Shown here: positions 58,403 to 64,000 of the stretch, in pieces
Layout: the number at the start of each line of letters is the position of its first letter
Position numbering within the stretch: position 1 is the stretch's first letter
Source of the DNA: Candidatus Woesebacteria bacterium
Lineage (GTDB): Bacteria; Patescibacteriota; Microgenomatia; UBA1400; UBA1396
Assembly: GCA_963749595.1 (NCBI GenBank)
Contig: CAVVNJ010000008.1
Location: 3,389 to 67,388, forward strand
Length of the DNA: 64,000 bases
Direction of reading: 5' to 3'
Notes under the pieces: generated by a model
Database searches by the model: none
What the model saw: the letters and a program-made list of their open reading frames with translations, nothing else
Told to the model about the DNA's origin: nothing
Translations under genes and position numbers: made by a program

Positions 58403-59458
58403 ATGAAAGAGTCATTACAACGCGGTGCTAGTTTCAGACAATATGATAAAGGGCTGAATCAAGTTTCGCATGCCTCACGTATTGTTGAAGAAAGATTGTC
58501 TGCTCTTGATATTGAGCAAAATGAGAAATTAGGTCAACACTTTCTTATCGATGATAATACCTTAAACAAGATGGCTCAAGAAGTTGAGTCCGGAGCCAAC
58601 GTTATTGAGATTGGAGCTGGTGTTGGACAACTCACGGAACTTCTCGCCCTACATGCAAATAAAGTTACGTCTATCGAAATTGATAGAAGGTATGAAGAAG
58701 TACTTAGACAGTTGCAAGAAAGATGCCCTAATGTTGAAATTGTTTATGGTGACGCCCTCTCCATCAAATTAGGCCATTTAGTGCATAAATTAGAGGCAGG
58801 TGAGCACACTGTCCAGATCGTAGCAAATCTTCCATACCATATTACCGAACCTTTTATGCATCTGGTTGCTGAACTTCGTATACCAATGAGCTTAATGGTT
58901 GGCGAAAAATTTGCTCAGGCCTCCCTTGCTGGGGATCCAAACGATCCAAATTTTACTACTCTTTCAATGCTTTGTCAGTCTTTTTTTGAAATTGATCGGG
59001 TCTTAGATGTTCCCAGGGAAGCGTTTTTACCCGAACCTAGAACCAAATCGGCAATTATGCGTTTTACTCCCAAAGGAGAAGCTAAACAATTATCAAGAGC
59101 CGATTTCGTAACACAACAGCTTTTTATTTCAATGAATAAAAGTCCTCTTGTAAAGAACGTGATCAAAGAGGCTTTAATTAAATATTCTGAAGTTTCTCTA
59201 TATGGAACAAGAACAAAAACTGAGTCAAGTAGGTTTAGTCGTAGAACGACTAAACAAGAACTGAGACAAACGCTCAAACAATACCAATTTGGAACCGACG
59301 ACGAGGAATCAGGTGATATCTCAGATGAAGCTGGAATGACACAGAATCAAGCAAGAGGTATTATTCAAAAACTAGGTGCTCCAGATTCTATCCTTGGTAA
59401 GCCATTTTCGCAGTTGAATAATAGCGAAATTAGAGTCTTGGCAATGAGCCTGAGATAG
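58403..59458 (+). CDS. rRNA adenine N6-dimethyltransferase family (KsgA/Erm-type) with N- and C-terminal extensions
   Basis: LGQHFLIDDN, VIEIGAGVGQLT and VANLPYHITEP motifs. 351 aa, AT-rich. Confidence 0.75.
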   Translation: MKESLQRGASFRQYDKGLNQVSHASRIVEERLSALDIEQNEKLGQHFLIDDNTLNKMAQEVESGANVIEIGAGVGQLTELLALHANKVTSIEIDRRYEEVLRQLQERCPNVEIVYGDALSIKLGHLVHKLEAGEHTVQIVANLPYHITEPFMHLVAELRIPMSLMVGEKFAQASLAGDPNDPNFTTLSMLCQSFFEIDRVLDVPREAFLPEPRTKSAIMRFTPKGEAKQLSRADFVTQQLFISMNKSPLVKNVIKEALIKYSEVSLYGTRTKTESSRFSRRTTKQELRQTLKQYQFGTDDEESGDISDEAGMTQNQARGIIQKLGAPDSILGKPFSQLNNSEIRVLAMSLR

Positions 59459-59531
59459 CACTTTGGCCTGTTGGATTCAAATAATATTTTTTTATGAATC
59501 TCAAAAAATTAATGGTATAATAATTAACCAA

Positions 59532-60092
59532 ATGAGTAAATTAGACAATGTAAAACAAGCATATTTAACAATTCTTCAGGAATTTGGCATTACAAACGAT
59601 GAAGTTCTCCAAAACACGCCAGAAAGAGCGGCAGAGGCGCTGCATGAACTGTTGGATGGGAAAAATGAGCTCAATCAGATTGGATGGAAAACATTTGAGA
59701 TTCATGAACCAGGAGAACTGGTTCTGATCAAAGGGATCGCTTTCCAGTCACTCTGTGAGCACCATGTCTTACCTTTCGTTGGCACAGTCTCCGTTGCTTA
59801 CATTCCTAGCAAAAAAGTTGTTGGACTTAGCAAAATTCCCAGACTAGTTAAAGCGGTCAGCCATCAATTGCAATTGCAAGAAAGGATGACTAACGAAATA
59901 GCAGACATTTTGCAGGAAAAGCTAGAACCTAGGGGGATTGCAGTCTATATAAAAGCAGAACATGCTTGCATGTACATGCGAGGAATTTGTTCTAATTCTG
60001 AAACGATTACATACACCCTGAGGAATGAATTAAAAGACAATCTTTTGCTGAGGAATGAATTTTTTCATTGCATAGAAAGTGAGCGAAAATGA
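59532..60092 (+). CDS. folE: GTP cyclohydrolase I
   Basis: SLCEHHVLPFVGTVSVAYIP, VVGLSKIPRLV and QLQERMT motifs. ATG at 59532 lies 10 nt after TGGTATAAT. Confidence 0.85.
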   Translation: MSKLDNVKQAYLTILQEFGITNDEVLQNTPERAAEALHELLDGKNELNQIGWKTFEIHEPGELVLIKGIAFQSLCEHHVLPFVGTVSVAYIPSKKVVGLSKIPRLVKAVSHQLQLQERMTNEIADILQEKLEPRGIAVYIKAEHACMYMRGICSNSETITYTLRNELKDNLLLRNEFFHCIESERK

Positions 60093-60451
60093 CCACAGTA
60101 ATGAAGCAATTTACCTTTGACTCATCACACCAACTCAAAGACTATGATGGACCCTGTGCAAACCTGCATGGTCATACGTATAAGCTAGAGGTTTATGTGA
60201 CAGGGCCTCTGTCAAAACAGGGGTTAGTTGTTGATTTTGCCATTTTGAAAAAGATCGTTCAAGAAAAGGCATTACAGTACCTCGACCATAAACATCTTAA
60301 CAGCATTATTGAACAGCCAAGCGCGGAGTACATTGCTCAGTGGATCTGGGATCAAATTGAAAGACCCGTTAATTCTCTCGGTAAGGAATTAGGTCTGTCG
60401 AAAATTATTTTGTGGGAAACTCCAACAAGTTGTGCAATTCTCGAAAAATAA
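60089..60451 (+). CDS. queD: 6-carboxytetrahydropterin synthase / PTPS family
   Basis: FDSSHQL...CANLHGHTYKLEV (Cx3HGH), 120 aa. Overlaps the folE stop by 4 nt. Confidence 0.8.
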   Translation: MTTVMKQFTFDSSHQLKDYDGPCANLHGHTYKLEVYVTGPLSKQGLVVDFAILKKIVQEKALQYLDHKHLNSIIEQPSAEYIAQWIWDQIERPVNSLGKELGLSKIILWETPTSCAILEK

Positions 60452-62514: not shown

Positions 62515-62516
62515 GT

Positions 62517-63497
62517 TTATTTTTTAGTATTTTGAAGTTTTTGGAGATGATAATTACCCTGGGGATTCGTGCTAACATAATCTTTGTAGACTTTGTGCTT
62601 CTTGAGCTCCTCAACTGTTGTCTCAAGAATTTTAATATAAGGATCATATATGAGTCTCACTGCATCTTCAGCGATTGGGTATGCCAGATTGCGGTCGCCC
62701 GTAATCATGGTGGAGTAATCAATTAAATTCATCTTAAGACTGTGGTAGTGGTAGTAAACAAGTGGCCATACGTTATTGATTAGCACTTCACCGTCTTTTG
62801 TAGAGAAATCGAATTTCTGCACATTCCACGGAGCCACATTCGTGCCTGGATTAGTAACTTCTCTGACGTGTTCAAAACGCCTTCTCCAGTCATCAAGATA
62901 CATCTGGTCTCCAAATTTACCCTTCTCTCCTGTATGCGAGCACCACTCTAGGCATTTCCCATACCAGTAGTCAAGAATTTTCTTACCGTTTTCGTTATTG
63001 CGAAAGCATTGAAAGGAACTGCAGTAATATCCATAACGCGCAAAATCATTGTCGTAAATTTGTGAAAAGTTGTTGGGTTGGATGATTGCGTCAGCTTCAT
63101 CAAACTCTCTAAAAATGATCTCGGGCGATTGAAAAAACATCAAATCGCAATCGGATAGGGTCACAAAATCACAATTTTGCTCAAGAATCACTTTTCTGGC
63201 GATGTAAGGATTTAGTGCCCAATAGTACTCATACAGTCTATCTTTCGTTTTTTTCAGATTAAGGATTTCGTTAGTCTCAAATTCAGTAGGGTGATATAGA
63301 ATGATATTCTTATATCTAAATTCATTTAGTACGCTAAAAGTGACTTCATCGAAACAAAAGAGGTGTAGGATAAAGTTGTTATGGTGTAACGATAGTGATT
63401 TGTAAAATACAACGGCTTTATGTAAATAGTTTGCATCTACACCAATAACAATGTGTCTTTCGGGTTTTGAATTAGCATCTTTCATATTAGATTCCAC
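62517..63497 (-). CDS. nucleotide-sugar glycosyltransferase (GT-A, GT8-like)
   Basis: IVIGVDANYLHKAVVFYKSL start and the DxD-type LSDCDLMFF. Confidence 0.55.
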   Translation of the reverse strand: MESNMKDANSKPERHIVIGVDANYLHKAVVFYKSLSLHHNNFILHLFCFDEVTFSVLNEFRYKNIILYHPTEFETNEILNLKKTKDRLYEYYWALNPYIARKVILEQNCDFVTLSDCDLMFFQSPEIIFREFDEADAIIQPNNFSQIYDNDFARYGYYCSSFQCFRNNENGKKILDYWYGKCLEWCSHTGEKGKFGDQMYLDDWRRRFEHVREVTNPGTNVAPWNVQKFDFSTKDGEVLINNVWPLVYYHYHSLKMNLIDYSTMITGDRNLAYPIAEDAVRLIYDPYIKILETTVEELKKHKVYKDYVSTNPQGNYHLQKLQNTKK

Positions 63498-64000
63498 CTA
63501 TTTCTCGATATGTTTTTAGAATTGAGGTTGCAAAGTATTGTATATCCTCTGTGTCCAATCCTGGATTCACATACAGGTTGAAAACTCTCTTCGAAATATC
63601 ATGTGAATTTGGGGTATTTGATTCACATTCAAGATCAAGTGCTTTGTAAATTGTTGTTTCTGGGAGAATTACAGGGTACTGCTTTTTGATTGGTATGTGC
63701 ATATCAATCAGTTTAGATATGAATTCATCTCGTTTGCCGGTCATCTCTTTTGGTAATAAACCAGTTAGGTAACAGTAGACGTTGTATGAGTTTTTGTCAT
63801 CGCTCTGGAATTTAATACTTGTGCCCTTAAAAAAATTTCTATATAGGTCTGCATGTTTTCTGCGTATTTGATTCAACTTGGACAGACGTTCAAGTTGTCG
63901 TAAACCCAAGGCAGCCTGGATTTCGGTCATTTGATAGTTAAATCCAAGATGATCGAAGTCGTAGTCTTCTAAGTTGGCCCTGTTTATCCCGTTATTTAAA
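63487..64000 (-). CDS. DegT/DnrJ/EryC1/StrS-family aminotransferase, C-terminal part (gene continues past the right edge)
   Basis: Hand extension of the frame upstream of the track ORF gives ...HLGFNYQMTEIQAALGLRQLERL, with no stop before 64000. Confidence 0.75.
   Translation of the reverse strand, partial: LNNGINRANLEDYDFDHLGFNYQMTEIQAALGLRQLERLSKLNQIRRKHADLYRNFFKGTSIKFQSDDKNSYNVYCYLTGLLPKEMTGKRDEFISKLIDMHIPIKKQYPVILPETTIYKALDLECESNTPNSHDISKRVFNLYVNPGLDTEDIQYFATSILKTYREIGGI

Follow-up and report, generated by a model that had tools for sequence, protein, structure and literature searches.

A mobile, AT-rich gene cluster of a Candidatus Woesebacteria contig joins 7-deazapurine genes to a KsgA-like methyltransferase and is tentatively read as a self-protected glycoside pathway

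We have analysed a 64,000-nt stretch of a Candidatus Woesebacteria contig (CAVVNJ010000008.1, positions 3,389 to 67,388; hereafter the window). Its right end (58.3-64 kb, the island) carries part of an AT-rich cluster in which a KsgA-like rRNA methyltransferase gene stands with 7-deazapurine genes, two kinases of the aminoglycoside phosphotransferase (APH) fold, a glycosyltransferase (GT) and a DegT-type aminotransferase. The reading that we favour, tentatively and with a little less than even confidence, is that a mobile gene cluster makes a decorated 7-deazapurine glycoside and that rRNA methylation serves as self-resistance. We propose it because five signature features of natural-product clusters coincide, namely a fixed scaffold pathway, swappable tailoring sets, genes for precursor supply and transport, mosaic evolution with inter-phylum transfer, and an accompanying rRNA methyltransferase. 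An earlier note on this DNA, made from the sequence alone, had suggested either a natural-product cluster with self-resistance genes or a nucleic-acid modification module carried by mobile DNA; the former fits best of the two, although the function itself is one that we infer.

Every gene call that the note had made in the island was correct, as judged from the listing of open reading frames (ORFs) and from profile searches (Table 1), and its expectation that the cluster runs past the window edge was borne out. The continuation lies on a 14.5-kb Logan contig encoding an identical GT, which was available as gene lengths and Pfam families only. Beyond the GT this contig encodes, with lengths in amino acids (aa), DegT(386)-DAO(370)-237 aa-QueC(376)-radical SAM(285)-AdoMet_dc(121)-BpsA_C(324), followed by two small ORFs. 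The length of the cluster is ~13 kb. It is built of two convergent operons, the plus-strand one with the methyltransferase, FolE and QueD, and the minus-strand one with a BpsA-like protein, a S-adenosylmethionine (SAM) decarboxylase, QueE, a long QueC, an MA-peptidase-like protein, a DAO-type FAD oxidoreductase, DegT, the GT and the two APH-fold kinases, kinase 1 being the last gene. As proxies with DNA we have used two other loci, L083 (GT 70% identical) and L088 (methyltransferase 66% identical).

The deazapurine genes form the scaffold part of the cluster. The earlier note had seen no QueE or QueC, which holds inside the window, but both lie just past its edge on the continuation contig (Radical_SAM, 285 aa; QueC, 376 aa), and both belong to the same cluster in L083 and L088 as well. 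Thus, the full pathway of the 7-carboxy-7-deazaguanine/preQ0 type is present. The FolE ORF opens with a TTG at 59463; the likely start is the ATG at 59532, preceded by TGGTATAAT, an extended -10 box, and the protein was called as 186 aa on the Logan contig. QueD, 72% identical to the L088 QueD, has CANLHGH as its Cx3HGH motif. The 4-nt overlap of FolE and QueD that had been described earlier exists (ATGA at 60089-60092) if the first ATG is used, whereas the gene caller of a second assembly chose the ATG at 60101 (116 aa). The L083 QueC orthologue, taken as proxy for that of the window organism, scored 78 bits against TIGR00364 (cut-off 150). This long QueC subtype keeps the PP-loop and the Cys4 site, has its substrate region replaced and is extended by ~100 residues at the N-terminus and ~60 at the C-terminus. 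The BpsA_C protein matches N4-bis(aminopropyl)spermidine synthase (E 3e-24), and its pair with the SAM decarboxylase adjoins FolE in L083, L088, L091 and L008. No QueF, TGT, QueA or QueG/H was present in the annotated loci and no preQ1 riboswitch was found with Rfam, whose matches were tRNAs and one LOOT RNA. The latter (L004, 17771-17887; RF03000, 81.9 bits) lies ~1.5 kb downstream of the second methyltransferase of a Microgenomatus cluster. In a Bacilli gut metagenome-assembled genome (MAG; L012, 6261-7547), QueC is fused to a C-terminal YhhQ/Vut_1-like membrane domain of the queuosine-precursor transporter family; since FolE, QueD and QueE are absent from that locus, import of the precursor is suggested there.

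The methyltransferase belongs to the KsgA/Dim1 clade and not to the Erm enzymes, as the placement by both sequence and fold indicates. It scored 156.7 bits against TIGR00755, the KsgA/RsmA equivalog model, which is below the cut-off of 171 (relatives, 128-152 bits), and 107.2 bits against the Erm model NF000499, far below its cut-off of 212. In direct sequence comparison B. subtilis KsgA gave 109 bits and Erm enzymes 36-54 bits (PDB ErmC', 36). The first 49 Foldseek matches of the AlphaFold model (predicted local distance difference test, pLDDT, 85) were KsgA, Dim1 and TFB1M proteins, including 30S-bound KsgA, which was matched over both domains and thus with the RNA-binding C-terminal domain included; ErmE ranked 50. 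The SAM-binding and NLPY motifs (GxGxG, E92/D94, P144 region) are invariant in the family. The protein had been described as extended, and it is indeed longer, but by ~25-35 extra N-terminal residues and a ~45-residue insertion inside the C-terminal domain and not by a C-terminal tail. The insertion consists of a basic helix (~residues 268-296) with the conserved pattern G-T-x-S-K-x-E-x-x-R-x-x-R-R-x-x-K-x-E-L-(R/K) and a mean net charge of +5, followed by a variable, often acidic loop (297-313). Because the RNA-binding domain has gained this basic helix, we favour an RNA substrate over a small molecule. We propose the long methyltransferase as a putative self-resistance rRNA methyltransferase. 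The PADLOC mad2 model also matched it (69.8 bits, profile positions 258-450 of 492), so the methyltransferase of the MADS system would contain an RrnaAD-like domain; we considered the match generic and have not taken it as evidence of defence. PADLOC otherwise returned a match of its QueC model only.

The association of this methyltransferase with deazapurine genes recurs well beyond the window. There are ~105 GT homologues of at least 39% identity, and nearly all those with a source name are from Patescibacteria. Scanning the GTDB representative genomes with the GT gave 80 loci, with a best match of 62% identity. All 11 loci whose GT is at least 43% identical carry an RrnaAD gene within 10 kb and, where the contig permits, also FolE, QueD, QueE, QueC and DegT, with or without DAO. 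Their hosts are Roizmanbacteria, Microgenomatus, WWE3 and other Patescibacteria, together with Clostridia, Bacilli and Lachnospiraceae MAGs. At 68 loci with a GT of 37% identity or less (Sphingobacterium, Campylobacter and others) there is at most an adjacent DegT, with neither deazapurine genes nor RrnaAD. One MAG holds two loci, both of which have an RrnaAD and a GT of their own.

Starting from the methyltransferase, 685 homologues were retrieved; the best 120 are mostly of 320-372 aa and at least 10 share a contig with a GT homologue. Among six homologues viewed in their genomic context, long forms of 66, 44 and 37% identity sit in the deazapurine clusters L088, L089 and L090 and one of 38% in L091, and a 301-aa form heads an RrnaAD-QueE-QueC-FolE-QueD-GT operon (L092). 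Short forms stand alone, as does the 288-aa one of a Gottesmanbacteria genome among housekeeping genes (L173), or adjacent to a long form (L084, L086, L090); short and long copies within one locus are 29-38% identical. In an independent scan of JGI metagenomes with a long-form profile, counting loci with at least 8 kb of flank, deazapurine genes were nearby in 14/19 long-form loci, in 1/5 short-form loci and in 5/16 loci of more distant relatives (long versus short, Fisher p = 0.047). Altogether the linkage was seen in 28 non-redundant loci plus the window (~29), mostly in bacteria of the candidate phyla radiation (CPR) with a few Firmicutes MAGs, in a family for which over 100 homologues each of the GT and of the long methyltransferase were found. 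The earlier note had thought such genes out of place in a reduced genome; instead, they make up a conserved family characteristic of CPR genomes and no single-genome oddity. It had also considered that the methyltransferase might be the orthologous rsmA. The protein is KsgA-like, but probably not simply a vertically inherited rsmA, given its GC content at third codon positions (GC3) of 0.30, compared with 0.55-0.62 in the core (1-49 kb), and a long subfamily linked to deazapurine genes. Of the five long-form JGI loci with no deazapurine genes, one (L133, 6307-16716) has the long form in a different, putative nucleoside-like cluster. Its other products there are a RimK-like ATP-grasp protein, a SAM methyltransferase, an S66 peptidase of the MccF type, a phosphoribosyl/glycosyl transferase (PF00591), a paralogue resembling TyrRS/TrpRS and two proteins that have no Pfam match.

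The comparison with the proxies revealed a mosaic. L083 has the same twelve gene families, all in one direction. L088 has in common the methyltransferase, BpsA, AdoMet_dc, FolE, QueD, QueE, the long QueC, the MA-peptidase-like protein and two APH kinases, and it swaps the GT8-like GT, DegT and DAO for a GT2 enzyme, a NodU/TobZ-type carbamoyltransferase and a PIG-L deacetylase. The RrnaAD-FolE-QueD block of the window is 66-76% identical to L088 and 31-36% to L083, whereas the APH2-GT-DegT block is 51-69% identical to L083 (kinase 2, 51%; DegT, 61%) and absent from L088; the junction is the convergent point 60451/60465. A third tailoring set found elsewhere in the family consists of SbnA/B, alanine racemase and a Ddl-like ATP-grasp protein. 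Other versions have further genes, for a Na/alanine symporter and an MFS exporter (both in Firmicutes versions), serine hydroxymethyltransferase (SHMT), methyltransferases of the MTS (L009, L089, L090) and other types, and a P-loop protein. In L091 (3992-10990) the order is BpsA-AdoMet_dc-FolE-DegT-280 aa-APH-GT1-RrnaAD, with QueD, QueE and QueC absent within 10 kb, and the core of that cluster may be of the pterin and not of the deazapurine type.

As for the tailoring enzymes of the window, the AlphaFold model of the GT (pLDDT 91) had LARGE1, XXYLT1, LgtC and glycogenin as its top Foldseek matches (15% identity or less). The DegT protein resembles sugar and inosose aminotransferases. Against curated resistance models the best scores of the APH kinases were 15-18 bits, with cut-offs of 205-550, so the general APH fold (PF01636) alone is supported.

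The composition of the window supported horizontal acquisition of the island, as the earlier note had held. The GC content is 0.509 in the core, 0.456 at 49.0-58.3 kb and 0.376 in the island, which places the cluster 13 points under its host. The drop described earlier is thus real, although the low end of the range then given (25-40%) was overstated, the values per kb being 0.355-0.395. The contrast is sharpest at third codon positions, where the seven island genes have a GC3 of 0.30-0.40, compared with the core range given above for Lon, RNase Y, PNPase and AddA. Besides composition, the insertion sequence (IS), the upstream tRNA-Ser and serine recombinase genes and the mosaic relation to clusters of other genomes support this origin. 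The IS stands at the left border of the island, as had been noted; it is intact, its terminal inverted repeats are 89% complementary and its end is 90 bp from the methyltransferase start. On the Logan contig the same rve gene comes after the methyltransferase.

Since the GC content begins to fall at the tRNA-Ser gene, this gene is the probable integration site and the left end of a composite island. It is followed by an HTH/M78 (IrrE-like) pair, the serine recombinase, the terminases, the ParB-DNA methylase fusion, a MerR-type helix-turn-helix (HTH) protein, the IS and the cluster. The segment at 48643-55778, of intermediate GC content (0.456), is a prophage or integrative-element remnant, whose prophage-like part (49.3-55.8 kb) holds the large serine recombinase. 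No att repeat was found inside the window, and scans for promoters and terminators gave no excess above shuffled expectation. Between the remnant and the IS (56259-57179) there are two small overlapping ORFs, one with a DUF4352 domain and the other hydrophobic at its N-terminus, perhaps parts of one lipoprotein-like gene split by a frameshift; next comes an HTH protein of the Xre type (75 aa). Recombinases 36% identical to that of the window adjoin the clusters of L088, L084/85 and L104, and tRNA genes flank those of L084, L086 and L088; because of these flanks we regard the cluster as cargo of integrative elements. The Gottesmanbacteria cluster of L084 is followed directly downstream (15734-20155) by genes for a restriction-modification enzyme of Type ISP and a nuclease of the OLD family, and transposases (IS110, rve) as well as a split serine recombinase lie upstream of it; this cluster therefore sits in a defence or mobile island.

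Table 1. Features of the mobile-element segment and of the cluster within the window
Feature	Position	Strand	Evidence
tRNA-Ser(GCT)	48643..48728	+	ARAGORN and Rfam
Large serine recombinase	50187..51482	-	Pfam Resolvase, Recombinase and Zn_ribbon_recom
Large terminase	51707-53218		
Small terminase-like gene	53215-53688		
ParB_N and N6/N4 DNA methylase fusion	53649-54977		
Insertion sequence	57379..58312	-	27-nt terminal inverted repeats; HTH ORF (57924-58265) and rve ORF (57381-57902)
KsgA-clade rRNA adenine N6-methyltransferase paralogue, long form, 351 aa	58403..59458	+	PF00398 (RrnaAD), E 2e-38
FolE, GTP cyclohydrolase I	59532..60092	+	PF01227, E 3e-56; NF006826, 185.6 bits (cut-off 162)
QueD, 6-carboxytetrahydropterin synthase, short form, 116-120 aa	60089..60451	+	TIGR03367, 96.5 bits (cut-off 89.25); PF01242
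APH-fold kinase 1, CotS/YtaA-like, 354 aa	60465..61529	-	PF01636, E 1e-9; TIGR02906, 74 (cut-off 172); PDB YtaA, E 3e-4
APH-fold kinase 2, 327 aa	61531..62514	-	PF01636, E 9e-20; weak matches to APH(2'')-Id and Mph(2')
GT-A glycosyltransferase, GT8-like, retaining type	62517..63497	-	PF03407; invariant DxD, D116-C-D118
DegT/DnrJ/EryC1/StrS sugar aminotransferase, C-terminal 170 residues	63487..64000, off the window edge	-	PF01041, E 9e-26

The core of the window identifies the host as a patescibacterium. Among its genes are those of RNase Y, PNPase, Lon, the helicases AddA and UvrD and many membrane glycosyltransferases of the PMT type, and the best named relatives of RNase Y are from Candidatus Woesebacteria (63% identical), "Patescibacteria group" and Pacebacteria. 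Genes for envelope glycans crowd the region 2868-29054, which encodes GT1 and GT2 enzymes, a flippase (Polysacc_synt_3), four membrane glycosyltransferases (PMT/PMT_2/PTPS_related) and a polyprenyl synthase and includes a 540-aa ORF (16758-18380) with no Pfam match. Other dips in GC content (0.43-0.46) occur at 1-2000, 29000-30800 and 36900-37900 and may be further small acquired segments; a PBECR3 nuclease-like ORF (226-687) lies in the first, and ORFs with no Pfam match lie in the others (29459-29977, 30025-30729, 36958-37632).

The favoured reading would run as follows. From their family membership, FolE, QueD and QueE would convert GTP to 7-carboxy-7-deazaguanine. The divergent QueC-like PP-loop enzyme may then turn the carboxylate into the nitrile (preQ0) or couple it to an amine, for which the roseomycin QueC homologue is a precedent. 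By analogy with aminoglycoside and puromycin biosynthesis, the GT would attach a UDP-sugar, the FAD oxidase and DegT would replace a sugar hydroxyl by an amine, and the BpsA-like enzyme would add an aminopropyl group from decarboxylated SAM. The APH-fold kinases may phosphorylate the product or an intermediate, either for self-protection (as a pro-drug) or for activation. Following the Erm paradigm, the KsgA-like paralogue would methylate an adenine of the producer's own rRNA and the producer would be immune to its product, a cationic deazapurine glycoside directed at the ribosome. Other models of the product (a pterin glycoside, a kasugamycin-like or a puromycin-like compound) were weighed as well, and none of them could be selected on the present evidence.

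Several points weigh against this reading. The entire evidence is MAG or metagenome sequence. The window-type cluster has no exporter and no regulator, and neither a phosphoribosyltransferase nor another obvious enzyme joining base and sugar; GT8-type enzymes normally form O-glycosides on sugars or proteins. APH-fold kinases also act as anomeric sugar kinases or other metabolic kinases, and the matches to antibiotic kinases are weak (E ~1e-3). QueE and QueC of the window subtype fall below their equivalog cut-offs, and FolE of L091 occurs with no QueD, QueE or QueC. Short and long RrnaAD forms did not fall into clean clades in a rough neighbour-joining tree of 139 proteins, and 5/19 long-form JGI loci have no deazapurine genes, 4/5 of them being flanked on one side only. 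As for SHMT, alanine racemase and Ddl, these may be housekeeping enzymes whose genes stand in the operon by chance.

The strongest rival, which we nevertheless consider unlikely, is a hypermodification of nucleic acid. A TGT or DpdA whose gene lies elsewhere would place a preQ0-type base in tRNA, rRNA or DNA, this base would be decorated in situ, and the KsgA-like enzyme would modify or recognise the same RNA. It is in nucleic acids that 7-deazaguanines have all their established primary roles, RrnaAD is a family of RNA methyltransferases, the MTS family of L009, L089 and L090 includes rRNA m2G methyltransferases, and RNA binding is suggested by the basic helix that the methyltransferase has gained. 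MnmC, a tRNA enzyme, belongs to the DAO family, and sets of kinase, pyridoxal-phosphate and FAD enzymes serve thymidine hypermodification in phages; the island lies beside prophage genes, and there is the mad2 match of the methyltransferase. However, TGT/DpdA (PF01702), the enzyme that defines such modules, is absent from all 10 Pfam-annotated loci, and QueF, QueA and QueG/H were not seen either. Among the 2.9 million viral contigs of IMG/VR there was no relative of the GT, the one cluster protein used as query. The mobile modification module suggested in the earlier note thus lacks its hallmark. Moreover, carbamoyltransferase, PIG-L, the MFS exporter, the alanine symporter, SbnA/B and alanine racemase are small-molecule enzymes, and swapping of tailoring sets between close relatives would be unusual for a conserved RNA modification. 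A more radical form of the idea, that CPR bacteria install a decorated deazaguanine (glycosyl, aminopropyl, carbamoyl) on their own rRNA or tRNA by a route other than TGT/DpdA, appears very improbable; if true, it would be a new class of RNA hypermodification on mobile islands.

Quite unlikely, too, is a role in decorating the cell envelope, with the cluster making a surface glycoconjugate of amino sugar, D-alanine or polyamine, possibly with a pterin or deazapurine, and the methyltransferase and preQ0 genes as loosely coupled passengers. Distant GT homologues (37% or less) are paired with DegT in many bacteria, as in polysaccharide loci, and the GT has the fold of GT8 enzymes that work on glycans and proteins. 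A Ddl-like ligase, alanine racemase and SHMT occur in clusters of the family, L086 is flanked by penicillin-binding protein and LytR genes, and the host core is rich in membrane glycosyltransferases and has a flippase. The clusters themselves, however, have no flippase, polymerase, initiating transferase or NDP-sugar synthesis gene, and the low GC content of the window cluster adds to this in telling against the ordinary O-antigen or cell-wall locus that the earlier note had kept in mind. The deazapurine genes share operons with the other cluster genes and overlap adjacent ones (L004, L084, L083), the RrnaAD linkage persists where GT and DegT are missing (L090), and the cluster is mobile with swapped tailoring sets.

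Improbable, in our judgement, is a small-molecule cluster in which the KsgA-like protein has no resistance role and, as a tailoring enzyme, N-methylates an exocyclic amine or a sugar amine of the compound. KsgA and Erm dimethylate an exocyclic purine amine and a deazapurine has similar amines; several clusters hold further methyltransferases (MTS, Methyltransf_11/12), and two RrnaAD copies are present in some loci. Yet we know of no PF00398 member that acts on small molecules, the fold matches 30S-bound KsgA across both domains, and the family-specific basic helix points to a polyanionic substrate. Finally, a chance neighbourhood of housekeeping rsmA, tRNA queuosine-precursor genes and unrelated sugar and kinase genes is disfavoured and very doubtful: the TIGR00755 score is near the cut-off, short RrnaADs that look like ordinary KsgA adjoin some clusters, L090 abuts ThrRS-IF3-L35-L20-PheRS, and the identity of SHMT between clusters (66-70%) resembles that of a constrained housekeeping enzyme, but the linkage recurs across CPR classes and Clostridia, Bacilli and Lachnospiraceae MAGs, even doubly within one MAG, the whole window block including the methyltransferase is foreign in composition and IS-bordered, the stand-alone short form lies in a housekeeping context, and QueF, TGT and the preQ1 riboswitch were not found in the annotated loci.

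CPR bacteria (Patescibacteria) are ultra-small, metabolically reduced episymbionts, of which specialised metabolism is not usually counted as characteristic. Here, a GTP-consuming deazapurine pathway with rich tailoring forms a large, mobile and mosaic family in the CPR that is exchanged with gut Firmicutes. If the proposed self-resistance is true, the cluster would stand for a new class of ribosome-directed, nucleoside- or aminoglycoside-like compounds, its methyltransferase would be a new KsgA-derived determinant of resistance by rRNA methylation, and the family would offer a molecular handle on the interaction of CPR bacteria with their hosts or competitors.

Compared with known systems, the methyltransferase shares with housekeeping KsgA/RsmA (16S m6,2A1518/1519) the fold, the SAM motifs and NLPY, and KsgA is its best structural match; it differs by its score below the equivalog cut-off, the 45-residue insertion, the N-terminal extension and the foreign composition. 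Erm/Tlr-type rRNA adenine methyltransferases are self-resistance genes in macrolide and lincosamide clusters, and some producers have two paralogues. The likeness is that of a PF00398 methyltransferase accompanying a biosynthetic cluster, whereas the window protein is of the KsgA/Dim1 clade (KsgA 109 versus ErmC' 36 bits) and has the family-specific basic helix. The Dpd and phage systems of 7-deazaguanine DNA modification likewise have preQ0 genes on mobile DNA beside recombinase and prophage genes, but the cluster has no DpdA, DpdB, DpdC or TGT and carries genes for sugar, kinase and aminopropyl tailoring instead. Aminoglycoside and puromycin pathways rely on a NeoQ/NeoB-type oxidase with an aminotransferase, PIG-L deacetylase, TobZ carbamoyltransferase and APH self-protection. 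These enzyme classes, combined in the same way, recur throughout the cluster family, although here the core is a 7-deazapurine with no 2-deoxy-scyllo-inosose or inositol, and the oxidase is of the DAO and not of the GMC/GFO family.

Precedents in pathway logic are the preQ0 glycosides huimycin and dapiramicin and the roseomycin type with its QueC-type amide ligase (bioRxiv 10.64898/2026.04.15.718813). In the huimycin and dapiramicin clusters (Kutzneria, Streptomyces, Micromonospora) a FolE-QueD-QueE-QueC scaffold is likewise made and then glycosylated, and TGT/DpdA is absent (bioRxiv 10.64898/2026.04.15.718813). They differ in having a GT-B enzyme (PF13439), an O-methyltransferase (PF08241) and a LuxR regulator, whereas the window-type cluster has a GT8-like GT-A enzyme and no such methyltransferase. 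Unlike them, the window cluster has the FAD oxidase with DegT, two APH kinases, the SAM decarboxylase with the aminopropyltransferase, the long QueC and the KsgA-like methyltransferase, a CPR host and a mobile setting. With the roseomycin type it would share a QueC homologue that, as we hypothesise here, may be an amide ligase on 7-carboxy-7-deazaguanine and not a nitrile synthase, and related clusters supply amines or amino acids through SbnA/B, alanine racemase and ATP-grasp enzymes; on the other hand, there is no sequence evidence of orthology, and the window cluster has no TauD or desaturase genes.

In the searchable literature we found no published description of a cluster that combines KsgA or another rRNA methyltransferase with deazapurine genes in CPR/Patescibacteria. 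A 2026 survey of 7-deazapurine clusters in ~2 million genomes reported mostly actinomycete families, mainly from Streptomyces, and mentioned neither Patescibacteria nor an rRNA methyltransferase partner. One metagenome survey reported an Erm-type resistance call (macrolide-lincosamide-streptogramin, MLS) beside a biosynthetic gene cluster in a Patescibacteria MAG. We propose that the cluster described here belongs with the 7-deazapurine secondary-metabolite clusters and carries a putative resistance gene of the RrnaAD type; its interest lies in the CPR hosts, the wide spread and mobility of the family and the KsgA-derived partner.

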